A stretch of 59,946 nucleotides of DNA, filler included. It is 3 parts of 3 records of this genome, joined end to end, with 100 filler letters (N's around TTAATTAATTAA, not from the genome) between each part and the next. Parts side by side here need not be neighbours in the genome. Positions count along the whole stretch, not along the records: positions 29,601 to 48,324 come from DRR723986_1313; 2 more parts are not named here. One strand, 5' to 3'. Shown piece by piece: positions 5,749-48,424 of this stretch (positions are counted from its first letter, which is position 1; each line of letters starts with the position of its first letter). The notes under the pieces are model-generated. The model worked only from the letters and a program-made list of their open reading frames with translations. It did not search any database and was not told the origin of the DNA. The position numbers and the translations under genes were made by a program.

Positions 5749-7698
5749 TCATGTGCCTGTGACTGCGGGGACCCAAATCGTGAAAATTGCCCCTCCTGTT
5801 GGTTGATTTCGGGCTGAAATACGCCCTCCGGTTTGCTGGATCAGAGTTTGACTTATGGAGAGCCCTAACCCAGTGCCTTCGCCCAGTTTGGTGGTATGAA
5901 AGGGGTCGAATACCCGTTTCATATGCTCTGCATCTATGCCGGGTCCCGTATCAGAAACAGACAGTTCCACGCCATCACGCTCATTCCTAGGCGATGGTTT
6001 GACCCTGATGTCCAGCTGACCGTTCCCCTCCATGGCTTGAATGGCATTGACCATCAGATTGACAAGGACCTGCTGCATCTCCCCAGTATCTATCGCAACA
6101 TTTGGTGCCGCATCAAATTGAGTGGAAATTTGCACGTTCTGTTGGGGATGCACGTGGGTGATTAGGCTTTTGCAGTCGTCGATCAACATTTCCAGCGATG
6201 TGCCTTCGCTGGAGGCCGAAAATTCAGTTGGGCGGGCAAATTGCAATAGCTTTCCAACGATCCCGTCAATGCGCTGTACCTGCTTATCGATCAGGGTCAA
6301 TTCGGTTTCCACGCCGGCGGCGTCCGGTCCCAGGGTCTGGCGCACGACGTCGACATTGCCCTGAATGACCGCAACTGGATTGTTGATTTCATGGGCAACC
6401 CCTGCAGTAATTTCCCCGATCGAGGCGAGCTTTTCAGAGAGCACCAATTGCTGGAATGTCTCTTCCAGCTTTTCATTGGCATCGCGAAGCTCTGAGGTGC
6501 GCCGATCAACGCGATCATTCAGCTCTTCTGCCCAACTGCGTAGAGCCTGATCCCGTTCTTGGACCTGATCAAGTAATGTATCTAGATGGGTTGCGACTTG
6601 GCTGATTTCATCCTTGGATCCGACGCTGCCGTTGCGCGCTGACAGATCCCCGTTCTCCACACGGCTCATGGTTTTGGTCATACGTTCTAGCGGCGAAAAA
6701 ATCCCGCGGGCCATCCTAAGGAAAAGCGGAATAGACAAGGCAAGTACGATGACCATGGCGGCGAGCATGGTTAGGTAAGCAGATTTTTTTGCGTTGGCAA
6801 ATGGCGCCTCTAAGAAGCCAACATACAGCATCCCAACTCGGTTTCCGAAACTATCAATGAGCGGCAGATAGCCCGAAATGTACCAATCGTTCACGACAAA
6901 GGCGCGGTCCAGCCAGGTTCGGCCCTGATCCAAAACGGCGGCTCGGACTTCGGCAGAAACGCGGGTTCCCAACGCGCGCACGTCTTCAAACAGGCGCACG
7001 TTGGTCGAAACACGAACGTCTTCGAGAAACAAGGTTGCGGTGCCCTGCCTTTCCCCGCCCGTCGCCGCATTGAGGTACACCAGCGCGTTGATGGTATCGA
7101 TGAAATCAAGATTCCTGTTCAGCAAGATCCCCCCGATCAGGACACCTTGATGCCCTAGCAGGTCAACGGGGGCCGCGGTATGGACCACCATGCCGCGATC
7201 CTCGACCACACGATCGGTGGGCACTGCGGCTTCGGTGTCGATCAGATCCACCCGCGCACGTTTAGCCAAGTCAGGGAAGTTGGCTATGGTATCGGCCGGG
7301 AAGATGTCAATTTGCGACGACAGCTCGCCCCCAAGCGCGGCCTGAACCACTGGCCAACGTTGGGCTTTGCCTGTCTGTGTCGCGGGAAGATAATATAGAA
7401 AGTCGAGCGCCTGCTGAACGCGTTGCTGTTCTAGGTATGCGGCTCTCGTCTCCGCTGGCCCGGTCAAGGCAAATTGGAAATGGCGGGAATCTGCAATGGC
7501 AGCGATACCTGCCCCTGTCCCGGCCAAAATGCGGCCCAGATATTGTTCGGCAATGCGTAAATCACTGTCGACTTTGGCAATCAAGAGCTCGTCGTAATCG
7601 GATGTCCAGCGGGTCATTGCCAGCAACATCAACAAGGGCAGTAAAACCACAAGAGGCGCCAGTGCGAGCACCAACAGTTTCAGGCGTACTGAATTCAA
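5749..7698 (-). CDS. Membrane sensor histidine kinase (Cache-HAMP-HisKA-HATPase), probable partner of the 1729-3075 regulator
   Basis: TTG start after GAGGGGG; two TM segments; AGVAHEINNP H-box; NLMVNAIQA; DTGPGI; GTGLGLSI. Confidence 0.85.
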   Translation of the reverse strand: MNSVRLKLLVLALAPLVVLLPLLMLLAMTRWTSDYDELLIAKVDSDLRIAEQYLGRILAGTGAGIAAIADSRHFQFALTGPAETRAAYLEQQRVQQALDFLYYLPATQTGKAQRWPVVQAALGGELSSQIDIFPADTIANFPDLAKRARVDLIDTEAAVPTDRVVEDRGMVVHTAAPVDLLGHQGVLIGGILLNRNLDFIDTINALVYLNAATGGERQGTATLFLEDVRVSTNVRLFEDVRALGTRVSAEVRAAVLDQGRTWLDRAFVVNDWYISGYLPLIDSFGNRVGMLYVGFLEAPFANAKKSAYLTMLAAMVIVLALSIPLFLRMARGIFSPLERMTKTMSRVENGDLSARNGSVGSKDEISQVATHLDTLLDQVQERDQALRSWAEELNDRVDRRTSELRDANEKLEETFQQLVLSEKLASIGEITAGVAHEINNPVAVIQGNVDVVRQTLGPDAAGVETELTLIDKQVQRIDGIVGKLLQFARPTEFSASSEGTSLEMLIDDCKSLITHVHPQQNVQISTQFDAAPNVAIDTGEMQQVLVNLMVNAIQAMEGNGQLDIRVKPSPRNERDGVELSVSDTGPGIDAEHMKRVFDPFHTTKLGEGTGLGLSISQTLIQQTGGRISARNQPTGGAIFTIWVPAVTGT

Positions 7699-26044: not shown

Positions 26045-26138
26045 ATTTCTCGATCCAGATGCAATCGCAGATCGGCATCGTTAAGCGGCCATTTACGAGT
26101 TGAGCATACTTTTGACGCACAGAACGTCGGAGGATGCC

Positions 26139-26684
26139 ATGAAAGGCGTTGTTTTTGTTGAACTATTGCGGATGGCTGAGTCTGTTTTAGGCGAAGATGC
26201 TGTGGATCAGGTACTGGATCAGGTCGATTTAGAATCCAATGGTGCCTTTAGCGCGGTCGGCAACTATCCGTGTCGAGAGCTTCTTAGTTTGGTTGACGCG
26301 TTCGGAGCGCGCCTTGATGCACCGCCAGAAGCTTTGCAGGTAAAGTTTGGACATTGGATGTTCGGCCGGTTCGTTGAAGGGTACCCCGAATTTTTCGAAG
26401 GCAAACGGGATGCCTTCGAAATGCTTGAGGCAATCGAGGGCGAAGTTCATGTCGAAGTGAGGAAACTGTACCCAGAGGTAGAGCTTCCGAGTTTTGCCAC
26501 CGAACGTCCGCTCCCATCGCAATTGCGCATGGTTTACGAATCTGACCGCCCCTTGATGCATTTCTGCCTCGGCTTGATCGAGGCCTGCATCGCGTACTTT
26601 GAAGATCAGGCAGATATTAAAATGGAAGAACAGTCGACCCCAGGAAAGTTTCGAGCCGAGTTTTTGATCCAAAAGGCGGCCTGA
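26139..26684 (+). CDS. Heme NO-binding (H-NOX) protein
   Basis: MKGVVF, EVHVEVRKLYP (proximal His), LPSF, YESDR (YxSxR), CLGLI. Confidence 0.9.
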   Translation: MKGVVFVELLRMAESVLGEDAVDQVLDQVDLESNGAFSAVGNYPCRELLSLVDAFGARLDAPPEALQVKFGHWMFGRFVEGYPEFFEGKRDAFEMLEAIEGEVHVEVRKLYPEVELPSFATERPLPSQLRMVYESDRPLMHFCLGLIEACIAYFEDQADIKMEEQSTPGKFRAEFLIQKAA

Positions 26685-26689
26685 GCTGA

Positions 26690-28051
26690 ATGTCTGAAAC
26701 GTCTCATCCGTCACCTCCAACGGTGTCTCGCCGCCGCTATGAACGAGCCCTGATCGCCAGAGAAGAGGCCGAGCGGTTGCTAGAGGCCAAAAGCCGGGAA
26801 CTGTATGAAGCCAATCAAGGATTGCTGAAGTCCAAATCGTGGCTGGAAAACGCGGTTCAAGAACGCACTGTTGAGCTTGAAGCAGCCCGTATCGCTGCCG
26901 AGGCGGCGAACGAAGCCAAATCTGTCTTTCTGGCCTCTATGAGCCACGAAATCAGGACCCCTCTGAACGGAATATTGGGGATGGCATTGGCGCTGTCAGA
27001 AAATGGGCTCACGAAAGAGCAAGGTGCGATTGTTGATGTCATTCGAGACAGCGGCTCGCTTTTGCTGTCTGTCCTAAATGACATTTTAGATCTCTCCAAA
27101 ATTGAGGCTGGAAAGCTCGAATGTGAAGAAGCGCCGTGTGACTTGTCAGACCTCTTTGGGTCGATTGAAAAACAGTACCAGCTGAACACTCAAGAAAAGG
27201 GATTAGAATTCCGGGTGTCTGTTCCCAAGGGGGCTGGCAATTGGGTGAAAACGGACGCCACGCGTTTGCGCCAAGTTGTTGGGAATTTGTTGTCCAACGC
27301 GATCAAATTTACGGACACGGGGTGCGTTACGCTGACCGCCAAGGTAACCCCTTGTGCCGACGGGAAGTCTAAGCTTACGATAACAATTACTGATACGGGC
27401 CCGGGCATTTCTAAAATTCAGCAAACGCGGTTGTTCAAGCCATTTTCGCAGGCAAATACCAGCATCACCCGCAATTTTGGTGGAACAGGGCTTGGCTTGG
27501 TCATTTCTCGTAGAATTTGCGAGACTATGGAGGGAACCCTTACTCTGAAAAGTGAGGCAGGTCAGGGGGCGGAATTCGTGTCTTCGGTCTTGGTTGAACC
27601 CTGTGCCAGTGAAGCAGCAGTCGATGAAACTCAGGATCGCGATGAGGCGGTGCTTACCAGTACGAAATGGCGCGTTTTAGCAGCCGAGGACAATCGCACC
27701 AATCGCTTGGTTCTGCATCATATGCTCAAGCGCTTTGACCTGTGCCTGGACATAGCCGAAAACGGAGAGCAATTGATTTCACGCTGGCGGGCGGAACCTT
27801 GGGATTTGATTCTGATGGATGTGAACATGCCGGTCATGGACGGGCTGCGGGCGACGCAGATCATTCGTGATCAAGAGCATGAGCAGCGCAAGACGCCGAT
27901 CCCAATTATCGCGGTGTCGGCAAATGCCATGTCACATCAGGTTAATGGATATCTGGCGCACGGGATAACGGATCACGTGGCCAAACCGTTGCGCCGCGCC
28001 GAACTTGTCCGGGCGATGGCAACGGCTTTGACCTCAAAAACTTTCGATTAG
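26690..28051 (+). CDS. Soluble hybrid histidine kinase (HisKA-HATPase-REC), H-NOX-associated
   Basis: [43 protein letters not shown]; no TM. Confidence 0.9.
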
Positions 28052-29080: not shown

Positions 29081-29500
29081 ATGGGCTTTAAAATGGGAAT
29101 CGTGGGTCTGCCCAATGTTGGCAAGTCGACCCTGTTCAACGCGTTGACTAAAACCGCAGCAGCACAGGCGGCGAATTTCCCGTTCTGCACAATCGAACCC
29201 AACGTAGGTGAGGTCGGCGTACCAGATGCGCGCCTTGATAAACTCGCCGCGATTGCGGGATCAAAGCAGATCATTCCAACGCGCATGACTTTTGTGGACA
29301 TTGCTGGCCTCGTCAAAGGCGCGTCCCAAGGCGAAGGCCTGGGCAACCAGTTTCTGGCTAACATTCGGGAAACTGACGCGATTGCGCATGTATTGCGCTG
29401 TTTCGAAGACGGCGATGTGACCCACGTTGATGGCCGCGTGGACCCGGTAGAAGATGCCGAAACCATCGAAACCGAACTGATGCTGGCCGACATTGAAAGC
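29081..29500 (+). CDS. ychF: Redox-regulated ATPase YchF, truncated by the gap
   Basis: [50 protein letters not shown]. Confidence 0.97.
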
Positions 29501-29600
29501 NNNNNNNNNNNNNNNNNNNNNNNNNNNNNNNNNNNNNNNNNNNNTTAATTAATTAANNNNNNNNNNNNNNNNNNNNNNNNNNNNNNNNNNNNNNNNNNNN
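29501..29600. other. Assembly gap with artificial six-frame stop linker
   Basis: N-run containing TTAATTAATTAA. Confidence 0.97.
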
Positions 29601-29601
29601 C

Positions 29602-29709
29602 GAAGAAGAGCTGGTCATGGCCTGCTGCTTTAACCCGCCCGTGACCGGCACCGAAGTGCACCGCGAAGACGGATCTTATGCTCCGGCGGCAAAGCTTGAA
29701 ACCGCCTGA
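29602..29709 (+). CDS. ectC: Ectoine synthase, C-terminal part (not in ORF track)
   Basis: [35 protein letters not shown], matches the EctC FNPP.TG.EVH..DG.Y signature. Confidence 0.85.
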
Positions 29710-29884
29710 AGGCGATACAAACTGGATATAGAGTTCGACTTGTCCAGTATCTTTGTGTCACTTCAAGGCAACGCCCCCTGCCTCAGATAGTTTACCATTG
29801 GGCAGGGTAAAGCTCTGCCATGCTTGGCTTTACCAAGAATGATCTGATCCCTTTTATTGACCCGCAAACATGAAAGAGATGCTC

Positions 29885-30988
29885 TCATCCCTCGTCGGAT
29901 GGAGCATCCGAAAACGTTAAGAGGTTGCGCATTTGTTCGTCCAACCGGGGCTGAACACTGCGCCGCGCCCTTGTAATTTTGGCCCGCTCCTCCAATCGAC
30001 GAGAAAGCGTGTCGATATCGAGATCACGTAATTCCAACCATTGCACCAAAGCGCCTTGATCATGCAGGGCGCGATGTTGACGGAATTCAGAAACCTCGCG
30101 TGCAAGATCGCCCAAGGGAACAGGGCTCGGTGATTGCCGGTCAAGTGCCAGTGCCAGTTCCGCGATCTCAGCATCGGCTCGAACCCGCTCGAATCCCTCG
30201 GGAGAGGCTGCACGCAACCTTTCAAGGGTATCAGGATCGCTCGCGGGACACTCCGAAACGACCTCGGTTAGCAAGGTGTCGAAAGCGTCCGAATGCTGGA
30301 ACTCAAATGGCGCCGCAACTGGCAGCGCACCTGCATCAAAATCAGCTGCGACACGCTCTAAGCAGGCCCGAGCATCAATGTTTTTTTGATCAATTCGCCC
30401 CGTCGACAACCAAACACGAAACCCCTCGGCGGTATCTGGATCAATCTTGGAACACGCTGCTAACAGCGCGTCATAACTCCGGTTTGGATAAAATTCAGCC
30501 TCGGTCATGCGCAGCAACTGGGCCGCAATCTCAGGGCGCAAGATGGCCGTTGTAACGGCCGCGTTAAGGGTCCAACGAATATTCACCAGCGGCTCTGAAA
30601 GGTAAGAATACGCCACTTCCTTTGGCGCGTGGGTCAGCGCAACCTCATCGTCTCTGGTAAGCGTACCATCAACGAAGGCGTCAAAGATTTCCCCAACACC
30701 GACCATCCCGAAACTGTGCAGCTCAGCGGCCCGCAAGGCCCCGGTTGAAGCCGCGCCATAGACGGGAATCCCTGCATCCAGCGACCAAAGGATTTCTTTG
30801 TGATAGACGGCAGGAAACGCCTCAAAGAACCCATCGATCAAAACAATCGCAGCCGGGCGCAAGAGAGCCGCGCGCAACACATCGCCTTGGGCAGCGGGGC
30901 CAAGCCTCTGAATCGGAAGTTTACCTTCCACCTCGCACGGGACCGGCAGCGACGGGCCTGCAAACACGACAATGTTTTCGCCATTCAT
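29885..30988 (-). CDS. tfuA: TfuA-like protein with C-terminal extension
   Basis: VFAGPSL, PAAQGDV, LIDGFF, HKEIL, VYGAASTGALRAAEL, DDEVALTH, LVNIR, FYPNRS, DQKNIDA. Confidence 0.9.
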   Translation of the reverse strand: MNGENIVVFAGPSLPVPCEVEGKLPIQRLGPAAQGDVLRAALLRPAAIVLIDGFFEAFPAVYHKEILWSLDAGIPVYGAASTGALRAAELHSFGMVGVGEIFDAFVDGTLTRDDEVALTHAPKEVAYSYLSEPLVNIRWTLNAAVTTAILRPEIAAQLLRMTEAEFYPNRSYDALLAACSKIDPDTAEGFRVWLSTGRIDQKNIDARACLERVAADFDAGALPVAAPFEFQHSDAFDTLLTEVVSECPASDPDTLERLRAASPEGFERVRADAEIAELALALDRQSPSPVPLGDLAREVSEFRQHRALHDQGALVQWLELRDLDIDTLSRRLEERAKITRARRSVQPRLDEQMRNLLTFSDAPSDEG

Positions 30989-32202
30989 TGGTACGCCCTC
31001 AAGGCCAAAGCCCGCGCGCCCGGTTTATACCCGGGGGCATCAGATGTGCCTTCTAATCCCGGCACCAGAACTCTGACGACTGAGGCCGGAATATCAGCAA
31101 TGGACAAATCCACGACCACAGGGACCCCAAGCCCCGCCCGACTAAGGGCCGCAAGCATACAAGAGAGGGCCTGATCCACCCCCAACACGGGGTGCGTGCA
31201 GATATCAGAAAAACGCCGGAGGGCTGAGCCATCGACGATTTCAGCCCGCTGCGCCTGAAGGGTCGTTGCGCCTCGCATTTTGCGATAAGACGCCCGCGAC
31301 CGATCATCCCGCGCGCCAGAGATCAACGTCAGGCGGCTTTGTGCGGCTTCGGTCAAAGCGCGTGACAGCGCGCTTCCGCGATCTGGATGAGCCCCCGAAC
31401 CCGAGGCGGCGTGCAGGCCCCTACGTGCATCATCGACCCTGTCAACGATGGTGACAAAGAAAGCAGGTATTTCAAGGTCCGATGTCACGTCCCAAATGGC
31501 ACACGCCACGCCTGCCCTGTCGAACCGCGCAAGAAGATCCATGCAGGCGGGATCATCAACCGTGTCGAGGTCCACGCGACGTTCGGACGGACCACTTGGC
31601 TGGTGCCGCCAGAGCGTGATGGCATCTCGCTCGATCGCCTCAGCGAGGGCTTGTGCGACGGCAGCGTCAATACTCATTCCAGCCGCAAGGCCGGTCGAGG
31701 ACATCAAAAAGCAGCCAAGCCGTGGGGGCAATGGCAGCGTATAATTCATGTGGATCACTTCATAAGGCACCCAAACAGGGCGACCCCTACCAACGGGTTT
31801 TCCCTCAGCCCAGAGCGCCGTGCGATCCCTTGGAATCGGCTTGCCTTCTAACAGCGGCAGACGCTCCAGAGGAATGATTTCACCCCCTAAAGACAGCTCA
31901 TTAGCCGTCGCAAGGCGCAAGGGGATCACGGGTGTCTCAGCGCAACTCAGCTCCACCGCTTCCATGATAGCGGAAGTTTTGGCGTCTTCGAGGGTCGCGC
32001 CTTTTCCCTGAGTGATCGCCAGAGACCGGGCATTGGGCCGATGTGCGGCACAGACCGGTATCCCGATGGCATCCAATCCGGTCAGGTCGGCCACCCGCGT
32101 AACACCAATCTTGGGAAGGTGGGGCAAAATCCGATCAAGTACGTCTTTAGATGAAACAGCGTGAAGAGCCGCCACGCGCCCTTGTTCGAATTCTTGCCCC
32201 AT
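30985..32202 (-). CDS. ycaO: YcaO-family protein, TfuA-associated (thioamide-forming) type
   Basis: GVTRVADLTGLDAIGIPV, QGKG, SAIMEAVE, SSTGLAAG..EAIERDA, RALTEAAQSR..ISGARDD, VPGLE; no PxP tail. Confidence 0.9.
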   Translation of the reverse strand: MGQEFEQGRVAALHAVSSKDVLDRILPHLPKIGVTRVADLTGLDAIGIPVCAAHRPNARSLAITQGKGATLEDAKTSAIMEAVELSCAETPVIPLRLATANELSLGGEIIPLERLPLLEGKPIPRDRTALWAEGKPVGRGRPVWVPYEVIHMNYTLPLPPRLGCFLMSSTGLAAGMSIDAAVAQALAEAIERDAITLWRHQPSGPSERRVDLDTVDDPACMDLLARFDRAGVACAIWDVTSDLEIPAFFVTIVDRVDDARRGLHAASGSGAHPDRGSALSRALTEAAQSRLTLISGARDDRSRASYRKMRGATTLQAQRAEIVDGSALRRFSDICTHPVLGVDQALSCMLAALSRAGLGVPVVVDLSIADIPASVVRVLVPGLEGTSDAPGYKPGARALALRAYQ

Positions 32203-32207
32203 TGTCT

Positions 32208-32519
32208 TTAGCTGGGTGACTTTGAACCACGGATGAACTTATGATTTTGCTTCAACCCATCAATGTTCACCAAATAGCAGGTGCCCATCGGCTCCACTTT
32301 TCCCGCCGGCAAATAGTCTGTTGGCGGAATTGTGGCAAGATTTACACCACATTGAAGCAGATCCCTCACGAGCGACCAGCCCTCGTGGTTTTCGTAATCT
32401 TTCGGATCAATTCTATATTCATCTCGATCCCACACATCTCTGGGAATGTGTAGAACTGTCCCATCATCACTTGCGATAATTAGGTCATGACGAAAACCTT
32501 CAAGATCATTATTTGACAT
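32208..32519 (-). CDS. Small 103-aa hypothetical protein, candidate YcaO/TfuA substrate
   Basis: GGAGG RBS before MSNNDLEGFRHDLII...; stop 5 nt before the ycaO ATG. Confidence 0.75.
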   Translation of the reverse strand: MSNNDLEGFRHDLIIASDDGTVLHIPRDVWDRDEYRIDPKDYENHEGWSLVRDLLQCGVNLATIPPTDYLPAGKVEPMGTCYLVNIDGLKQNHKFIRGSKSPS

Positions 32520-32652
32520 CAATTCAATCCTCCAAAATGTATCTGGTTTCAGTAGACCAAAAAAGCGGGCTTGCAACAAGGGTTTCGAAAATACGCTGAT
32601 CCACCCCCTGAAACCGAGCCCTATTCCACCACATTTCAGAGACGTTTTCGGG

Positions 32653-35600
32653 TCATAAAAAGTGAAACTCTCGGGCGGCAGCAATAAGCTCCGCTGACTT
32701 TTCCTTCATATTACCTTCGTCACGTCCGGCGGCCATCGTTGAAATTTCGGCGGCAATACCGCGTATCGCCTTTGGAAGGATTTGTTGACTCGAGTCGATC
32801 ATGCGGGCGCAAAGATCGGGAACTTTGAGAATATCGTTTGCGGATGTGCTGAGTGCAATCAACGGGAGAATTACCGACCACTCGAACGGGTAAGCAATCG
32901 AAGCTTTGTCGAACTCTGCCAAGGCTTCTGCCGCAAAAGAACGAGCTTTCTCAACGGATCCGCGGCGCCAGGCGGCCCAAGACAGGTTGGATTTTGCCAA
33001 GCCCACATATTCATGCATTCCCAACTCAACAGCTAGGGCAATGCTCTCATGCGAGAGCGCCAGCGAGTCAGAGATTTCGCCCATGCGCCTATGGATTGTC
33101 GCCAAATAGGTCATGCAGCGAACTTCGATCTTTCGATGCCCAGAGGCGCGCGCAGAGGCCAAACTGGCATTCATTGCGACACAGGCTTCATTCAGCTGTG
33201 CGCTGTGCAATCTAACAAACCCCTGAATGAACTGAGCCGATGCAATCGTTGCCAGATTGCCAGTCTCCATCGCCGCAGACACATAATCCTTGGCCGTTGT
33301 ATGGGTTTCTTCCGTGGGCGCGTATCGGGACATCCTAAGGTCACGCAACACCAACTGGTCATAGTATTCAGCCCGCTGTTCGGGTGTCATTCGGTCAACC
33401 AAAGGGGCAAGATTGGCCGCAAGCTCCAGCATAGTTTCGCCGTCGCCGCTCCAGTAATGAACATTGAGCCTGTTTAGTTGGATATCAATCCACTCGCACA
33501 GCAACTCTGTATCGTCCTGCCAGTTGGTTTCAATCAAAACACTTTCCGCTATAGCAAGCTCTGCAAGAGATCCATGGCGATCTTGTTGCAGCGCATTGCC
33601 CGCGAGGCGATGAAGTCTTGCAATGCGAAGGACATCGCCCCCAGAAATCTCGGCAGCTTCTCTAAAGGCCGCAACTGCATCCTCAAGGTCGTGCACCAAT
33701 GTCAGGACCGAGCCGAGCTGCTCTAGCAATTCAACGCGGCTTGGCAACGCGCTCGAATTTCCGCCCTCGGTTAAGTCAACTCGGTCAAGGTAGGACAACG
33801 CCGTTTCATAATATGCTTTGGCTTCTGTATTCGCGTAACGGGACCGCGCCAATTCTGCCGCTTGGCAGAAACATCGGGCTGCTTCGGCATGATTGCCCGA
33901 TAATCCCCAATGGTTCCCAAGCACATGCCCGGGCGTGCTTTTTCGGAAACTTGACTTAAGGACCGTGGCAACCCGTGCATGCACCATCGCACGAACAGAA
34001 CGCAGCATGGTTTGATAGGCCGCGTCTCGCATCAGCGCATGTCGGAAAGAATATGTCCCCGGCGTATGGGCCTTGGGCACAATAATTTGCGCCGCTACCA
34101 GCACCCCCAGATTTTCCTGGAGATCTGACTTCGCCTCTTCTATCACCGCTGACAGAGTTTCAAGCGAGAAGTCGCGCCCGATCGCCGCCGCCGTCTGAAG
34201 GATCCGCCTGGATTCAGGATACCTATCGAGACGGGCAATCAACAGCTCGCTCAATGAGGTCGGAATCGCAGAGGTATCCATTGAAACATCCTCGCCCGGT
34301 TTCCGGTCTAGAACTTGTGTTTCAATAAATGACTTTGACAGCTCTTCAGCAAACAAAGGAATTCCGTCTGATCTCTCAATCACCACTTCCAGAACCCGTA
34401 CTGGCAAAGGTTGTACGCCATAAACATTGGCCGCAATCTCGCCGATCGCTTCATTGGAAAGTCGTTTCAGCGCAATACGCCGGATGCGTACGCTGCCTTC
34501 CCAATCTGCCTGAAAATTTGGCCGGCAGGTGAACACCAGCATGACCGGATCAGCTTTAACCACCTCTACCAACCGCCCAAGAAGATCTTTGGTGGTCGGG
34601 TCCACCCAATGCAAATCTTCAAACACAAGCAGGACTTTTTTGCCGCTCACATACCATTTAAGCAATGCAATAAGCGCTTGAAGCGTTACTTCTTTTTGTC
34701 CCTGCGCATCACGCGTCAGATCCGTTTCATTACTGTTTTTTCGAAACCCGATAAGCGCTTCCTGAAGCGAGGCTCTTTTGTTTTGGTCCAGCGTTGTAGA
34801 AGCAAGAAATTCCTCCAATCGATCAACCTCAGTAAGGTCGCCCGATTGAGGCCCCGCAAGGATGCGTGACCAAATATAGGTGTAGATCGGGTAGAGCGCA
34901 TCGTTGGTATGAAAGGGCGAACAATGAAAGCACATAACTCTGCCATCTTGTTCTAAAACTTGGGAAGAAAACTCTTCGATCAACCGCGATTTTCCGATTC
35001 CCGGCTCTCCGGACAGAACCATTGCCTGGCGCTGCTCTTGCCCGATACGACGCCAGGTCTCGTTAAGATCTGCTAGTTCCGCCTTTTGGTTTGTAATTGG
35101 CAGCTTCGTATGAGGATCCCGTTCAAGCCCTGCGAACGTTTCATCAATTATTCCGTCAACACGCCAAACCTTTATCTGCCCCTTGAACCCTTTCAACTTG
35201 TGATCACCCAGATCAAAAAAAGCGAACTTGTTCTCTACAATTTCCTTTGTTTCGTCAGAAATTGCCACGGTCCCCGGATCAGCCATCAACTGAATTCGCG
35301 CAGCTAAGTTCGGGGCACGGCCAACGGCTTGGTCTTCTTCGACATAGGAGTTTCGAATGTGATCGCCGACCACAACGTTCCCTGTAGCAATACCAATGCG
35401 ACAATTCATTTTGTTGCCATGCTGTTTGCTCAGTAATTGCATCGCATCCGTAATCCTAAGGCTAGATCGGATCGCACGCTCAACATCATGTTCATAGGCT
35501 TGTGGCCAGCCAAAATATGCAAGAACTCCATCCCCGAGATATTGTGAGATAAAGCCGCCGTATTCTTCGGTAACCTCGGTGACGACACTTTTAAAATCAC

Positions 35601-35952
35601 TCAATAATGCAGTCAGCTCCTCGACTTCGAGCTGTTCAGACAGCTGCGTCGACCCGACCAGATCAGTGAACACCACAGAAAGCTGGCGCCGTTCCTGACT
35701 TCGCGCATTGGGCTGATGTTCTTTTCTCTTTGCGACATGGCCATTTGCGAAATCGTGGACGTGATCGTGGCGCAAGAATGCGATGGCATCCAAAAGTTGT
35801 CGCCGGTGCCCAACTGATGCAATCCCCAAATCCCGGAGATCCTGTGCCGTAATCGAAGGCAGAATTGAACTGGTGATATCATGCTCGTGGAAAACAGCCG
35901 CATAACGGCTCAACCCAAGCGACCCAAGCCAATCATCAATGTCGATTTCCAT
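32653..35952 (-). CDS. SAM domain - class III nucleotide cyclase - STAND (AAA) ATPase - TPR protein
   Basis: WLGSLGLSRY..F SAM; FTDLVGST, GDG and NLAARIQ cyclase; GEPGIGKSRL; LVFEDLHWVD; GIPLFAEEL; YSFRHALMRDAAY; TPR-like tail. Confidence 0.9.
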   Translation of the reverse strand: MEIDIDDWLGSLGLSRYAAVFHEHDITSSILPSITAQDLRDLGIASVGHRRQLLDAIAFLRHDHVHDFANGHVAKRKEHQPNARSQERRQLSVVFTDLVGSTQLSEQLEVEELTALLSDFKSVVTEVTEEYGGFISQYLGDGVLAYFGWPQAYEHDVERAIRSSLRITDAMQLLSKQHGNKMNCRIGIATGNVVVGDHIRNSYVEEDQAVGRAPNLAARIQLMADPGTVAISDETKEIVENKFAFFDLGDHKLKGFKGQIKVWRVDGIIDETFAGLERDPHTKLPITNQKAELADLNETWRRIGQEQRQAMVLSGEPGIGKSRLIEEFSSQVLEQDGRVMCFHCSPFHTNDALYPIYTYIWSRILAGPQSGDLTEVDRLEEFLASTTLDQNKRASLQEALIGFRKNSNETDLTRDAQGQKEVTLQALIALLKWYVSGKKVLLVFEDLHWVDPTTKDLLGRLVEVVKADPVMLVFTCRPNFQADWEGSVRIRRIALKRLSNEAIGEIAANVYGVQPLPVRVLEVVIERSDGIPLFAEELSKSFIETQVLDRKPGEDVSMDTSAIPTSLSELLIARLDRYPESRRILQTAAAIGRDFSLETLSAVIEEAKSDLQENLGVLVAAQIIVPKAHTPGTYSFRHALMRDAAYQTMLRSVRAMVHARVATVLKSSFRKSTPGHVLGNHWGLSGNHAEAARCFCQAAELARSRYANTEAKAYYETALSYLDRVDLTEGGNSSALPSRVELLEQLGSVLTLVHDLEDAVAAFREAAEISGGDVLRIARLHRLAGNALQQDRHGSLAELAIAESVLIETNWQDDTELLCEWIDIQLNRLNVHYWSGDGETMLELAANLAPLVDRMTPEQRAEYYDQLVLRDLRMSRYAPTEETHTTAKDYVSAAMETGNLATIASAQFIQGFVRLHSAQLNEACVAMNASLASARASGHRKIEVRCMTYLATIHRRMGEISDSLALSHESIALAVELGMHEYVGLAKSNLSWAAWRRGSVEKARSFAAEALAEFDKASIAYPFEWSVILPLIALSTSANDILKVPDLCARMIDSSQQILPKAIRGIAAEISTMAAGRDEGNMKEKSAELIAAAREFHFL

Positions 35953-36151
35953 ACCGTCTCTTACCGCATTTTTCGTCGATGGCACCTGATAGATACGACG
36001 AGGCGCGCCCTTCCCTTACGTCCAATTCCCCATCCACCGAATGTCGCGGCAGGGAATTCATCTTTCAAAATCAGGTGCTAAATAAATACCATTACGAAGC
36101 AATCTCCATTATGATGGCAACTATATCAATATCAAGAGAAAGACAGATATC

Positions 36152-36802
36152 ATGGCCAATTCACTGAATCTTCTTGTTGTGGGGACTGGAAACGTCGCCT
36201 GCGCTCTTGTTCGCCGTTTTGCTGCGACCGATAACACCGTTTCCATCGGGTCGCGCGATGCTGATCGCGGGGCCGAGGTAGGCACCAGCCTTGGTGTCAA
36301 CGGCGGGGCCGCATCAGATCAGGTGAACAACGCGGATGTCATTTTCCTGGCGGTACCGTTTACCGCTCTGGATGAGACCGTAGAAGCGCTCGGTCCTATG
36401 ACGGGCAAGATCGTCGTCGATTGCACAAATCCTTTGACCGAAGACTACCTGGCTTTAACCCACGGCCACACCACATCGGCCGGTGAGCAATGCTTGGCAA
36501 AGCTGCCCGAAGCACGCGTCGTCAAAGGCTTTAATGCCATTTTCGCAGATGTCGTACACACCAACACGCAGTATAACGGCATGAAACCACAGATCTTTCT
36601 TGCGGGCGATGACACCGAGGCCAAAGGCGTTGTGTCGGATCTGGTTCGGGCAATTGACTACGAACCTGTTGACAGCGGTCCAATGAAAAATGCGCGTTAT
36701 GTTGAGCCGCTCGCGGAATTGATTATTCAGCTCGCGTATGTGCAAGGCGAAGGCACCCAGATCACACCGATTATCATGCGCAGTTCCGCTGATCCGGCCT
36801 AG
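36152..36802 (+). CDS. NADPH-dependent F420 reductase-like oxidoreductase
   Basis: VGTGNVA, GSRD, FLAVP, VDCTNPL, VVKGFN, AGDD. Confidence 0.85.
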   Translation: MANSLNLLVVGTGNVACALVRRFAATDNTVSIGSRDADRGAEVGTSLGVNGGAASDQVNNADVIFLAVPFTALDETVEALGPMTGKIVVDCTNPLTEDYLALTHGHTTSAGEQCLAKLPEARVVKGFNAIFADVVHTNTQYNGMKPQIFLAGDDTEAKGVVSDLVRAIDYEPVDSGPMKNARYVEPLAELIIQLAYVQGEGTQITPIIMRSSADPA

Positions 36803-37034
36803 CGGGTGAAACAATAGAATGCCGGACGATCATTGATACCAAAGGGCTCGTTGATCGTTCGGCTCCGGCCACACTGAGTGAGACGCGGCTCTTCTAACAG
36901 CACCGTCCCGTGGCAACCCGCTCCAGACCTGATCGAAACCCGACATGCGACCCCGAAGCCGTTTGACGGGCGGATGCCAAAACTGTACTCCCTAAAAAAC
37001 AGAAACTTGATTACAAAGGGCAATTCGAACCGCC

Positions 37035-37910
37035 ATGCAGCTGATTTTCCACACTGGCGCACACGCGACTGACGAAGACCGACTGCTCAAGGTTCTGCTG
37101 ACGAACAAACAAGAATTTGCGCAACGGGGCATTGCCGTGCCAGGTCCCGGCAAGTACCGCCCGCTGTTCAAAGACACCTTTACCGCGCTCGAAACCTCGC
37201 CTCCATCAGCGAATGCACGGGATGTTCTGATGGACGCCATTTTGGATGATGAGGTTGCGGACCGAATTCTGATGACGCATCAGCATTTCTTTGGCACGCA
37301 ATGGTCTGCTATTCGCGATGGTGTCTTTTACCCTCTGGCAGGTCCCCGGGTCGCACAGCTCAAACACGTGTTTGAGTTTGATCAAGTCGAAGTCTTTATG
37401 TCGATCCGAAACCCTGCGACGTTTGTTCCGGCGGTGCTGGCAAAAACCGCGCCGAAACGGCAGCAACAGGTCTTGGAAGAGATCGATTTCCTGTCTCTTC
37501 GGTGGTCCGATATGGTTCAGCGCATTCGCGATGACGCGCCGGATGTTCCGCTGACCATCTGGTGTAACGAAGATACGCCGCTGATTTGGGCGCAGATCAT
37601 TCGCGACATGGCGGGGTTGGATCATGGCACCAAGTTCACCGGTGGATTCTCACTACTGTCCGAAATCATGTCCAAAGAAGGCATGAAAAGATTTCGCGCC
37701 TACCTGCATCAGTATCCCGAGATGACCGAGATGCAAAAGCGTCGCGTCATCGCAGCCTTTCTCGATAAATATGCCATCGAAGACGCCGTTGAAGAAGAAC
37801 TGGATCTGCCGGGCTGGACCGAAGAGTTGGTCGATCAACTGACGGAACTCTATGACGAAGATGTCTTTGCCATTCAGCGTATTCCAGGCGTCCAATTTAT
37901 CGAGCCCTGA
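37035..37910 (+). CDS. Conserved hypothetical protein (possibly sulfotransferase-like fold)
   Basis: Long clean ORF; FHTGAHAT resembles the HIGxxKT start; IRNPATF. Confidence 0.7.
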   Translation: MQLIFHTGAHATDEDRLLKVLLTNKQEFAQRGIAVPGPGKYRPLFKDTFTALETSPPSANARDVLMDAILDDEVADRILMTHQHFFGTQWSAIRDGVFYPLAGPRVAQLKHVFEFDQVEVFMSIRNPATFVPAVLAKTAPKRQQQVLEEIDFLSLRWSDMVQRIRDDAPDVPLTIWCNEDTPLIWAQIIRDMAGLDHGTKFTGGFSLLSEIMSKEGMKRFRAYLHQYPEMTEMQKRRVIAAFLDKYAIEDAVEEELDLPGWTEELVDQLTELYDEDVFAIQRIPGVQFIEP

Positions 37911-41763: not shown

Positions 41764-42627
41764 ATGACACCCTTTGTAAAAGCCTTCTTCGACGAAGCCA
41801 CCTTTACGGTGTCCTATCTGGTGCGGGACCCCGAAGGCAGCGCCTGTGCCATTATCGACAGCGTTCTGGATTTTGACCACGCGTCGGGGCGCACTGACAC
41901 AACTTCCGCCGACAAGATAATCCAGTTTGTCAAAGACAACGCCTTTACTGTTGAGTGGATCCTCGAAAGCCATGTGCACGCGGACCATCTTTCTGCGGCC
42001 CCCTATCTGCAAGAGGCGCTTGGTGGTAAAATTGGCATTGGGTCCAACATCACTCTGATCCAAGACACCTTTGGCAAGGTCTTTAACGAAGGCACCGAAT
42101 TCCAACGGGACGGCAGCCAATTTGATGCCCTGTTTGAACAGGGTGACAGTTTTCACATCGGACAGTTGCGCGGGGATGTCATGCATACGCCGGGACATAC
42201 CCCCGCCTGTATGACCTATGTGATCGGCGATGCCGCCTTTGTGGGCGATACGTTGTTCATGCCTGATTTCGGAACAGCACGGTGTGATTTTCCCGGCGGT
42301 TCTTCTGAAATGCTATTCCAATCAATCCAAAGCATTCTAGCTTTGCCCGACGAGACACGCATCTTTGTAGGCCATGACTACAAGGCCCCCGGACGCGACG
42401 AATTTGCCTGGGAAACCACAGTTGGCGAACAAAAAGCCCTAAACGTCCACATTGGTAAGGGGCGTCCCATCGAAGATTTCGTAGAAATGCGTGATGCGCG
42501 CGACGCCACCTTGGCTATGCCGCGGCTGATCCTGCCGTCGTTGCAAGTCAACATGCGCGCCGGGCAGATGCCGGAACCGGACGCCGATGGGGACGTCTTT
42601 TTGAAAATCCCGATCAACAAAATCTAA
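41764..42627 (+). CDS. Persulfide (sulfur) dioxygenase, Blh/ETHE1-like MBL hydrolase
   Basis: ESHVHADH, HTPGHT, GDTLFMPDFGTARCDFPGG, GHDY, RDATL. Confidence 0.88.
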   Translation: MTPFVKAFFDEATFTVSYLVRDPEGSACAIIDSVLDFDHASGRTDTTSADKIIQFVKDNAFTVEWILESHVHADHLSAAPYLQEALGGKIGIGSNITLIQDTFGKVFNEGTEFQRDGSQFDALFEQGDSFHIGQLRGDVMHTPGHTPACMTYVIGDAAFVGDTLFMPDFGTARCDFPGGSSEMLFQSIQSILALPDETRIFVGHDYKAPGRDEFAWETTVGEQKALNVHIGKGRPIEDFVEMRDARDATLAMPRLILPSLQVNMRAGQMPEPDADGDVFLKIPINKI

Positions 42628-42666
42628 CTCAGACGACAAATCGCGCGAACACAAAGGAACACACAC

Positions 42667-43095
42667 ATGGAAACAGATTGGATCTGGGGCCTGATCGGCG
42701 GCGCGCTGATCGGGACAGGCGGGGCCATCTACCTGTTGGGCAACGGTCGCATCATGGGGGCTAGTGGCATCCTGGGTGGGCTGGTTGACGGTACCGGGCG
42801 ATCGACGATGGTGGAACGCATCGCCTTTGTTCTGGCGGTTATTCTGACGCCCCTCTTGCTCATGCCCGTCTATGCCGTGGATATCAGCACGCACATCACA
42901 TCCAATCTGGCCGTTGTCATTGCTGCGGGATTGCTGGTTGGAACCGGGACACGCATCGCGAATGGCTGCACCTCAGGTCACGGCGTTTGTGGCATCTCGC
43001 GCTTTTCGTTGCGAGGCATCGTTGCGACCGTTTTCTACATACTAGCAGGTGGCATCACGTTGGTTTTGTTCCGCCATATTTTGGGGGTCATTTGA
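42667..43095 (+). CDS. YeeE/YedE-family sulfur transporter half (PmpB-like)
   Basis: GGALIG, GRIMGASGI, GCTSGHGVCG. Confidence 0.85.
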   Translation: METDWIWGLIGGALIGTGGAIYLLGNGRIMGASGILGGLVDGTGRSTMVERIAFVLAVILTPLLLMPVYAVDISTHITSNLAVVIAAGLLVGTGTRIANGCTSGHGVCGISRFSLRGIVATVFYILAGGITLVLFRHILGVI

Positions 43096-43526
43096 TGCGT
43101 ATTGTCATTGCAGTGCTTGCTGGCGCGTTTTTCGGGGCCGGTCTGTTCGTTTCTGGTATGACCGACACCACCAAAGTCCAAGGCTGGTTGGATGTGTTTG
43201 GCAATTGGGATCCCACACTGGCCTTTGTCATGGGCGGGGCCATAATCCCAATGTTCATCGCATGGCGACTGACCCCAAATCGCACCCCTCTGGCCGGTGG
43301 AGAATTCCCCTCGTTGCCGCGCCCTGAACTGGATCACCGCCTGATTGTCGGGTCCGTTCTATTTGGTATGGGATGGGGGTTAGCTGGCCTGTGTCCGGGA
43401 CCTGCCATGGCCTCACTAAGCTATGGTGGGACTGCAGGTATCGTTTTTCTGATTGCTATGATTGCTGGCATGATTGCAGCACCTCCGCTGGGTGTAAAAC
43501 TGGACAGGCTGGCAGGCACAGCGTAA
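43095..43526 (+). CDS. YeeE/YedE-family sulfur transporter half (PmpA-like)
   Basis: SGM..KV..WLD..WDPTLAFVM, FGMGWGLAGLCPGP; TGATG coupling. Confidence 0.85.
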   Translation: MRIVIAVLAGAFFGAGLFVSGMTDTTKVQGWLDVFGNWDPTLAFVMGGAIIPMFIAWRLTPNRTPLAGGEFPSLPRPELDHRLIVGSVLFGMGWGLAGLCPGPAMASLSYGGTAGIVFLIAMIAGMIAAPPLGVKLDRLAGTA

Positions 43527-43535
43527 GGAAAGCCC

Positions 43536-43967
43536 ATGGATATTCGACCCATCACCTCCCGCTACGCTGTCTCGCCGCAAATCTCGGTTGAAGACGTGCC
43601 CGCCATCGTCGATGCAGGCTTTTGCAAAGTCATTTGCAACCGTCCCAATTCAGAAGTGCCCCCCAGCCATCAGGCAGAAGTCATTGCCGAAGCCGTCCGC
43701 GCAGCAGGGCTGGAATTCGAAATTCTAGAGCTGACCCACCAGACAATGACACCGGACAATGTGTCTCGGCAGCGAGCGCTGTCAGAATGTGACGCAGGTC
43801 CGGTTCTTGCCTATTGCGCCTCTGGGACACGCAGCTCTGTCATCTGGGCCTTGGGACAATGCGAGGCGTCTGATCCTGACTCTATCTTGTCCCAAACCAA
43901 CGCTGCTGGCTATCAACTCGAAGGGCTACGCCCAACGTTGGCTCAACTCTGTGATTCAGCGAAATAA
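43536..43967 (+). CDS. DUF442/TIGR01244 sulfurtransferase
   Basis: VSPQI, ICNRP.E, PVLAYCASGTRS. Confidence 0.85.
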   Translation: MDIRPITSRYAVSPQISVEDVPAIVDAGFCKVICNRPNSEVPPSHQAEVIAEAVRAAGLEFEILELTHQTMTPDNVSRQRALSECDAGPVLAYCASGTRSSVIWALGQCEASDPDSILSQTNAAGYQLEGLRPTLAQLCDSAK

Positions 43968-48324: not shown

Positions 48325-48424
48325 NNNNNNNNNNNNNNNNNNNNNNNNNNNNNNNNNNNNNNNNNNNNTTAATTAATTAANNNNNNNNNNNNNNNNNNNN
48401 NNNNNNNNNNNNNNNNNNNNNNNN
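48325..48424. other. Assembly gap with artificial linker
   Basis: N-run containing TTAATTAATTAA. Confidence 0.97.

Follow-up and report, generated by a model that had tools for sequence, protein, structure and literature searches.

In the window, by which the whole stretch of 59,946 nucleotides of DNA analysed here is meant, a group of five genes was studied that encode a long TfuA, a YcaO, a small protein of 103 aa, a large STAND protein with an N-terminal cyclase domain and, divergently, an NADP oxidoreductase. The group is a YcaO-TfuA system with a STAND partner of the sort that has been flagged, but never explained, for clusters of thiazole/oxazole-modified microcins (TOMM), and the best explanation of its composition is a self-contained, cytoplasmic module of five genes. 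The linkage of its parts is strong; its chemistry and the sensing step are predictions. As the preferred reading, to which we assign a probability of about 0.35, it is proposed that the sensor region of the STAND protein binds the small protein and that the STAND protein is the module's own transducer. The sequence-only reading of this DNA had reported four co-oriented genes, separated by spacers of 133 bp and 5 bp and by a 4-bp overlap. Coordinates of the open reading frames (ORFs) confirmed that all four lie on the minus strand, and both spacers and the overlap (ATGA) proved correct as well. A fifth conserved gene, that of the divergent NADP oxidoreductase (36152-36802, plus strand), had been overlooked. 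The features of the module are as follows.

29885-30988, minus strand: long TfuA of 367 aa, with a PF07812 match and a C-terminal extension of about 150 aa
30985-32202, minus strand: YcaO of 405 aa, matching the full PF02624 profile
32208-32519, minus strand: small protein of 103 aa, with GGAGG 7 nt 5' of the ATG
32520-32652, intergenic: spacer of 133 bp between the STAND gene and the small gene
32653-35952, minus strand: SAM-cyclase-STAND(AAA_16)-TPR protein of 1099 aa counted from M12, assigned by Pfam domains
35953-36151, intergenic: divergent region between the STAND gene and the oxidoreductase gene
36152-36802, plus strand: NADP oxidoreductase of 216 aa, F420_oxidored / NpdG-like (PF03807)

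The evidence for a module lies foremost in its conservation. A scan with one genome per species yielded nine loci, three of them from Ruegeria, one from a metagenome-assembled genome (MAG) of Pseudomonadota, two from Rhizobium and three from Ensifer/Sinorhizobium. The order of divergent oxidoreductase, STAND cyclase, small protein, YcaO and TfuA was recovered by tblastn in 9/9 loci from at least four genera, and with the same order in every one of these genome loci the arrangement goes far beyond what chance would give. In the nine loci tblastn detected none of the other genes that neighbour the module in the window. When ORFs of at least 100 aa were clustered all-against-all, four families were common to all 10 loci, and the remaining shared clusters were antisense shadow ORFs or confined to a single genus; the small gene, which falls below 100 aa in part of the loci and hence outside this clustering, was found in 9/9 by tblastn. 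No protease or exporter family was common to the 10 loci, the flanks of which were heterogeneous, and in the conserved core no signal-peptide or transporter domain was found with Pfam. Peptidases were sporadic only, namely a trypsin-like gene in one locus (L001) and an S8 fusion in the protein P0048. Before these comparisons, absence of a cyclase-STAND gene beside ycaO-tfuA elsewhere had been named as the observation that would speak against the proposed system; the two were found together in 9/9 genome loci and on pSymA of S. meliloti.

The module is rare and occurs in marine and root-nodule bacteria. Of 72,556 plasmid records three carried it, namely pSymA from two strains of S. meliloti and one S. 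terangae replicon, and near-identical DNA was detected in marine metagenomes from several studies. The small-protein family was not found in the 400 further genomes sampled from the phylum of G001, nor in the 300 further ones sampled from the family of G002. On one S. meliloti pSymA (L021, 1533-3869) a second, membrane-type cyclase with the architecture dCache-HAMP-Guanylate_cyc is situated about 1 kb from the module's oxidoreductase gene.

The small protein represents an undescribed family and is a candidate substrate of YcaO-TfuA. It had no Pfam or NCBIfam match even at permissive thresholds (NCBIfam E 10), 31 family members gave no match in Pfam, and six distant members none in NCBIfam at E 0.01. 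A collection of 5.8 billion proteins contained 16 relatives (clusters) at 57-100% identity, conserved over the whole length, and a profile search of 1.84 billion representative proteins returned 36 at E <= 0.001, most of them of 80-125 aa. The family alignment (n=31) consists of 29 of these 36 representatives together with P0001 and P0013; left out were the fragments P0018, P0022 and P0033, the split match P0032 and the long proteins P0041, P0048 and P0051. P0041 (3074 aa) was rejected as a family member, as only profile residues 17-41 matched, probably as a chance repeat match.

In the alignment C81 is invariant in the 31 sequences, and D12, G20, L55, G58, A62, P65, Y82 and N85 are nearly invariant. 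The N-terminal part is conserved (F-x-x-D-L-I-I-A-x-D-D-G-x-x-Y-H-I, then L-L-x-x-G-V-x-x-A-A-x-P) and is followed by a variable linker, an island C-Y-L-x-N-L-x-x-L that contains Cys81, and a variable tail. This anatomy resembles that of a substrate in which a long leader is combined with a modification site that is conserved, and not that of a hypervariable antibiotic core. The statement of the sequence-only reading that protease, exporter and leader-core peptide are all missing was upheld for the first two as regards the conserved core; for the third it is doubtful, the small protein resembling a long-leader precursor. The small gene lies directly upstream of ycaO and is under purifying selection (dN/dS, the ratio of non-synonymous to synonymous substitution rates, 0.115-0.53 in 21 of 36 pairs, those without saturated dS). 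With 57-76% identity across the module loci, compared to 37-63% for the STAND protein, it is the best-conserved gene of the module. An AlphaFold2 model reached a mean predicted local distance difference test score (pLDDT) of 57.5, with residues 78-82 and 84-103 below 50; this poor model had no fold match at Z >= 2 among 48,161 chains, and the Protein Atlas gave no usable match. From the N-terminus (MSNNDLEGF...), which is acidic and has no hydrophobic stretch of the signal-peptide kind, and from the absence of a linked exporter a cytoplasmic location of the small protein is inferred. The domain is also found in repeated or fused form: two tandem repeats are present in L020 (2606-3322), the first of them without the Cys, four in P0051 (413 aa), and in P0048 (556 aa) the domain stands behind an N-terminal S8 peptidase (subtilase) domain.

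The longest ORF of the STAND gene (32653-35985) starts at GTG, and the ATG at 35952 corresponds to M12, which is invariant in 10 orthologues. Pfam placed SAM_1 at 15-72, Guanylate_cyc at 96-276 (75 bits), AAA_16 at 302-484 and TPR repeats at about 750-1023 (TPR_12/TPR_2 matches 752-1023). Walker A (G-x-P-G-I-G-K-S, 326-333) and Walker B (E-D-L-H-W, 456-460) are invariant in 10 orthologues, and with this P-loop, the TPR sensor repeats and the N-terminal cyclase output the protein is, judged by its sequence, a STAND NTPase. In the cyclase domain D108, D152, N226 and R230, their positions set by alignment to CyaB (3r5g), are invariant in the 10 orthologues; D108 and D152 we take to be the metal-binding residues and N226 and R230 the transition-state residues of class III cyclases. 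Given the full YcaO profile, the invariant cyclase residues and the Walker motifs, both YcaO and cyclase look active. The base that the cyclase would select is less clear. Canonical base-selecting pairs are Lys/Asp for ATP and Glu/Cys for GTP, and the STAND-type cyclase Rv0386 of M. tuberculosis has the non-canonical residues Gln/Asn. In the present protein Q148 aligns with the adenine-selecting Lys of CyaB and Q219 occupies the second base-selecting position; the closest orthologues have both without exception, and in another subgroup the residues are Arg/Ser. At the first position Gln was counted 18 times and Lys 15 times in 50 rows, Lys predominating among SAM-cyclase paralogues. Q148 and Q219 being non-canonical, the nucleotide product of the cyclase is therefore uncertain.

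What sets this STAND protein apart is its sensor. With the sensor region (500-1110) 11 full-length orthologue clusters were obtained at 414 bits or more and with a coverage of at least 91%, below which scores dropped to 155 bits and coverage to 52% or less, though SAM-cyclase-AAA_16 paralogues are common. STAND-type class III cyclases and kinases outside any context of peptides that are ribosomally synthesised and modified post-translationally (RiPPs), of the type cyclase-AAA_16-TPR or with MalT-type sensors, have the same architecture and the same presumed mechanism, in which a ligand drives oligomerisation and a dimeric output domain is thereby activated. SAM-cyclase-AAA_16 paralogues of about 1100 aa are numerous, but they match only 26-52% of region 500-1110 and are without the module's sensor. 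Residues 740-1110 had exactly one match per genome in 5/5 module genomes, 0.1-2.0 kb from the small gene, whereas the same five genomes contained 12 TfuA matches, seven of them away from the module. The sensor is thus always beside the small gene and TfuA often elsewhere, and hence the STAND protein goes with the small-protein family, not with TfuA generally.

Distant relatives allowed a separation of constant from exchangeable parts. A metagenome scan with eight distant family members led to six loci, the small proteins of which are 35-45% identical to distant members. A homologous STAND was present in 4/6, YcaO in 4/6 and TfuA in 2/6, the misses being at the ends of short contigs; the two loci without STAND are contigs of 1.1 and 1.4 kb. 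In two loci (L017, L019) a STAND of the type Pkinase-AAA_16-sensor (1238 and 1272 aa) is followed by a further ORF, a B12-binding radical S-adenosylmethionine (radical-SAM) enzyme, the small protein, YcaO and TfuA. The further ORF encodes an NmrA-like NAD(P) reductase in L017; in L019 (5256-6173) it is family-less and not similar to that reductase. The radical-SAM enzymes had their best match in the RiPP C-methyltransferase model TIGR03975, below its cut-off. Of the other loci, L020 holds a STAND sensor, a NIPSNAP-like ORF, the two-repeat small protein and YcaO, L015 the end of a STAND gene and then the small protein, and L018 the small protein and YcaO; in L016 (1.4 kb) no partner gene was seen. 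Kinase-type and cyclase-type STANDs align through the sensor region, where W832, Y844, W845, R884, R887, Y888, P1033, F1034 and W1036 are invariant residues common to L017, L019 and the cyclase type. The N-terminus varies (SAM, zinc ribbon or none), and the STAND of the window had no Pkinase match and carries a SAM domain instead. As far as these alignments go, sensor-STAND, small protein, YcaO and TfuA make up the conserved core, with output domain and tailoring enzymes varying. In the linkage of a cyclase-STAND gene to ycaO-tfuA, as first proposed, it is the STAND-sensor part that is conserved and not the cyclase, which is replaced by a Ser/Thr kinase in the distant relatives. Weak NIPSNAP-like ORFs (below the Pfam cut-off) were noted beside kinase-type STAND loci (L017, 929-1672; L020, 2352-2660).

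The YcaO, of the enzymes that activate backbone amides at the expense of ATP, covers profile positions 1-325 of 325 of PF02624 (245 bits). Its best NCBIfam match was TIGR03266, the YcaO of McrA-glycine thioamidation (186 bits, cut-off 365), ahead of 118 bits for the azoline-type model TOMM_cyclo_SagD and 28 bits for NF040716 (E. coli-type YcaO, annotated as S12-RimO accessory factor), and the closest solved chain was MJ1094 (6pe3, E 1e-21). TfuA, the gene of which adjoins ycaO in 9/9 genome loci, matched PF07812 with residues 52-171 (144 bits) and NF033432 with residues 5-214 (184 bits, cut-off 235); its closest solved chain, 6xp8 (217 aa), covers residues 47-181 only. As both enzymes score below the equivalog cut-offs, they were not classed as McrA enzymes, though by sequence the YcaO is closest to the McrA-thioglycine type and the TfuA to the McrA-associated type. 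The TfuA extension (residues 215-367) is conserved in nine orthologues, with invariant F230, D234, A235, F236, W317, D324 and D326, and is even longer in the distant locus L019; it had no match among solved chains, and a word-index search with it retrieved three close relatives only. The oxidoreductase matched PF03807 (60.5 bits) and TIGR01915 npdG (90 bits, cut-off 150), with the F420:NADP oxidoreductase 5n2i as closest solved chain (E 2e-20), and is divergent from the STAND gene in 9/9 genome loci and in L021, at 56-69% identity.

For both enzymes the best matches, by family as well as by structure, came from the McrA thioglycine system of methanogens. This system is similar to the module in its adjacent ycaO-tfuA pair, in having a protein and not a short peptide as target, and in that the module's distant relatives carry a B12 radical-SAM enzyme weakly matching the model of the McrA glutamine C-methyltransferase. 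It differs in the scores just given (186 vs 365 for YcaO; 184 vs 235 for TfuA), in the extra 150-aa domain of the module's TfuA, in the presumed substrate, which is here a dedicated 103-aa protein encoded next door, and in the addition of a STAND protein and an NADP oxidoreductase; moreover, the hosts of the module are alphaproteobacteria, not methanogens.

Between the STAND gene and the small gene other genes are interposed in four loci (L001, L003, L006, L007), from which it follows that small gene, ycaO and tfuA form a transcription unit of their own. In L001 the interposed gene is that of the trypsin-like peptidase. In a Ruegeria MAG (L003, 5200-7760) two ORFs resembling insertion sequence (IS) transposases are found at this place, with the module genes intact, and in L006 and L007 (about 6008-7610) it is taken by an AMP-binding (acyl-CoA synthetase-like) gene on the opposite strand, split in L006. 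An AMP-binding gene adjoins the oxidoreductase in L009 (1869-3614), and such a gene accompanies the module in Rhizobiaceae. The 133-bp spacer probably holds the promoter of small gene, ycaO and tfuA. Upstream of the small gene no element or operator was conserved across genera except the ribosome-binding site, and 29601-37100 gave no Rfam match at E 1. The divergent region 35953-36151 contains one promoter-like site on the minus strand (36135-36108, 10/12 positions); promoter-like sites were no commoner than in shuffles (6 vs mean 4.4), terminator-like sites likewise, and neither intergenic region contained an inverted repeat.

According to the preferred reading the module would work in three steps. 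First, YcaO, with the long TfuA delivering sulfide, would modify the small protein around Cys81-Tyr82-Leu-x-Asn85, most likely to a backbone thioamide or, alternatively, to a thiazoline at Cys81. Recognition would be through the small protein's own N-terminal part, which is conserved, and possibly through the TfuA extension, for which a role in substrate recognition is a guess. Second, the NADPH oxidoreductase would carry out an accessory redox step; in L017 its place is taken by an NAD(P) reductase not homologous to it, a hint that this step matters. Third, the C-terminal sensor region of the SAM-cyclase-STAND-TPR protein would bind the small protein, modified or not, and nucleotide-dependent oligomerisation would then pair the cyclase domains into active dimers producing a cyclic nucleotide, its base uncertain; in the distant relatives the same sensor would drive a Ser/Thr kinase instead. 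The product would stay intracellular, as no exporter is conserved, and would be a signal or regulator and not a secreted antibiotic. Binding of the small protein by the sensor is proposed because the sensor is confined to this module and is retained when the output domains are exchanged. That a thioamidated small protein would be ligand, regulator or output of the STAND protein, as the sequence-only reading had suggested of a thioamidated protein, is likewise a prediction.

Several observations weigh against this proposal. The step from sensor to ligand is proposed from gene linkage, and the same linkage would be expected if the STAND protein were a mere cluster-situated regulator. In the module and its scanned flanks no cyclic-nucleotide receptor was found, the base-selecting residues are non-canonical and leave the cyclase product uncertain, and the STAND gene is transcribed separately from the trio of small gene, ycaO and tfuA, with room for other genes to be inserted between the two units. 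As for the small protein, a pLDDT of 57.5 makes a "disordered tail" weak evidence, and conservation over the full length is unlike that of most RiPP precursors and fits an accessory protein too.

According to the main rival reading, which is only a little less probable, the module is a RiPP-type cluster with a cluster-situated regulator, in which the small protein would be a long-leader precursor, converted by YcaO-TfuA and the reductase to a natural product, and the STAND protein would sense an unrelated metabolic or environmental cue and switch production on or off, with control via cyclic nucleotide or phosphorylation by analogy with the large ATP-binding regulators of secondary-metabolite clusters. 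Among NCBIfam models the STAND protein was matched best by the closest precedent, TIGR03903 ("TOMM system kinase/cyclase fusion protein"; 384 bits, cut-off 706; profile positions 282-928 of 1267), which lends itself to this explanation. This fusion protein likewise is a large STAND-type kinase/cyclase linked to YcaO and to precursor-like proteins of about 100 aa, and tandem or fused precursors occur there, comparable to L020 and P0051 here. A large Ser/Thr kinase is described beside NHLP-Burk precursors (TIGR03795) in Burkholderiales, the precursors being also tandem or fused (Haft et al., 2010, PMC2887384). The module's STAND, however, stays below the cut-off and is without kinase domain, its match ends at profile position 928 of 1267 and the C-terminal sensor parts do not align, its YcaO is of the stand-alone TfuA type and not of the fused cyclodehydratase-docking type, and its small protein had no match to TIGR03795 even at E 10. 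The module is no member of the TIGR03903 system, but by analogy may work like it; in the literature searched no characterisation of either was found.

Separate transcription of the STAND gene also suits a cluster-situated regulator, as do the B12 radical-SAM enzymes of the distant loci, which resemble RiPP methyltransferases, and the sporadic peptidases (trypsin-like in L001, S8 fusion in P0048). Against it stand the lack of a conserved exporter, immunity gene or protease, a putative core that is conserved and not variable, and the lack of both a DNA-binding output domain and a linked cyclic-nucleotide receptor; nor would a generic cue explain a sensor that is confined to the module, co-diverges with it and has its output domain swapped. 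Actinobacterial thioamide RiPP clusters (thioamitides, thiovarsolins) share the adjacent ycaO-tfuA beside a ribosomal substrate gene; the module differs in having no conserved protease or exporter, a conserved stretch in place of a variable core, and a long leader-like part. To call it "not a standard RiPP cluster", as the sequence-only reading did, was fair, yet the small protein may be a precursor-like substrate, and TIGR03903 (Haft et al., 2010) is an annotated precedent. Malit et al. (2021, PMC8120280) describe proteobacterial TfuA-YcaO clusters as numerous and uncharacterised; the word "cyclase" is absent from their main text, while the supplementary figures may show such clusters. More generally, no paper linking TfuA/YcaO with a cyclase or STAND protein was found in the literature searched, the best 40 of 52 papers since 2022 with mention of TfuA included; supplementary files may contain such clusters.

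A stricter form of the preferred reading would make the modified small protein the cognate intracellular ligand of an NLR-like STAND, with YcaO-TfuA and the reductase (elsewhere the radical-SAM enzyme) writing a backbone mark that the sensor reads; the output would be a cyclic nucleotide in the module and phosphorylation of proteins in the distant relatives. We regard this form as doubtful.

That the small protein is an accessory of YcaO-TfuA, either a persulfide or sulfur carrier acting via its invariant Cys or an adaptor presenting the STAND protein or an unlinked protein, is unlikely. The single invariant Cys in 31 sequences and a full-length conservation above that of the enzymes would suit such a role, and thioamidation substrates can be encoded elsewhere, as shown by McrA and uL16, the only thioamidated proteins characterised according to Rice et al. 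(2026, PMC13063428). The latter, a target of E. coli YcaO, provides an example of protein thioamidation in Pseudomonadota; unlike in the module, that YcaO acts without TfuA and without a neighbouring small ORF and recognises a folded surface. The 31 members, on the other hand, had no Pfam family match, sulfur-carrier families included, and the Cys is modelled in a low-confidence stretch and not in a folded active-site loop. Furthermore, the two- and four-repeat forms and the peptidase fusion resemble multi-core precursors, and a place directly upstream of ycaO is the usual position of a substrate gene.

Very improbable is anti-phage defence, in which the NLR-like STAND would sense infection and make a cyclic-nucleotide alarm as in Pycsar, with the modified protein as effector or trigger: the STAND-TPR architecture, a class III cyclase fold homologous to Pycsar cyclases with matches to the PADLOC PycC models (best 58 bits), the non-canonical base-selecting residues and a patchy, rare distribution that includes a conjugative megaplasmid are compatible with it, but the PycC matches are generic cyclase matches that do not surpass the general class III one (75 bits), PADLOC gave no match for the remaining five proteins scanned, of which four belong to the module, the cyclase is fused to STAND-TPR, no cyclic-nucleotide-activated or -binding effector, nuclease, TIR or pore protein was found in the module or conserved in its flanks, the neighbours are ordinary metabolic genes that differ between genera and form no defence island, and deep divergence as a unit (37-76% identity) speaks against a fast arms race, so that the defence option put forward earlier is left without support.

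The genomic setting of the module in the window is limited on one side by a joint between contigs, which was read directly in the sequence.

29501-29600, no strand: artificial contig joint, consisting of an N-run, the TTAATTAATTAA linker and a second N-run

A second linker of the TTAATTAATTAA kind, an all-frame stop linker, is present at 48369-48380. At least three contigs are strung together in the window, and neighbourhoods across the joints are artificial. The stop of tfuA is 284 bp from the start of its contig, which places the module at a contig edge, and genes left of the joint at 29501-29600 are consequently not physical neighbours of the module. No ectC, downstream of which the module had been said to be inserted, was among the flanking ORFs scanned, and that left flank is the artificial joint. 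The ORFs beyond it are trpA, a ychF fragment, H-NOX and a hybrid histidine kinase. The N-terminal ychF fragment (29081-29500, plus strand; TIGR00092 positions 1-141 of 368) is cut by the contig end, the gene itself not being truncated. The H-NOX (haem-nitric oxide-binding) gene is directly followed by that of the hybrid histidine kinase with receiver domain (26100-28051, plus strand), on a contig other than the module's; the two are a typical nitric oxide-sensing pair.

To the right of the oxidoreductase a family-less ORF is followed by modABC and then by a group of sulfur-related genes. The family-less ORF, of 291 aa (37035-37910, plus strand) and situated in the interval between oxidoreductase and modABC, had no Pfam, NCBIfam or PADLOC match and is absent from the nine related loci. 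The sulfur-related run (41764-43967, plus strand) encodes a metallo-beta-lactamase-fold protein, a fragment of Sulf_transp (YeeE/YedE-like), DUF6691 and a BLH phosphatase-like protein, and looks like a cluster for the handling of sulfide or persulfide. It shares the module's contig, at a distance of about 5 kb, and is not kept beside the module elsewhere.

Taken as a whole, the linkage suggests that the small protein, the backbone of which is predicted to be edited, and the switch protein may work together. If thioamidated, the small protein dedicated to this module would add to McrA and uL16 a third case, and one simpler to study. That a STAND sensor and a YcaO substrate-like protein are paired exclusively and with deep conservation, the output being swapped between cyclase and kinase, offers a testable idea both for the role of the TOMM kinase/cyclase proteins flagged in 2010 and for the ligands of bacterial STAND-TPR cyclases, and the module is present in hosts that are tractable and harmless, Ruegeria and S. 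meliloti (pSymA). Should the STAND protein indeed read the mark, this would be the first case of RiPP-type chemistry serving as an internal signalling code and not as a secreted product, and the kinase/cyclase proteins of TOMM clusters, for long unexplained, would gain a function.

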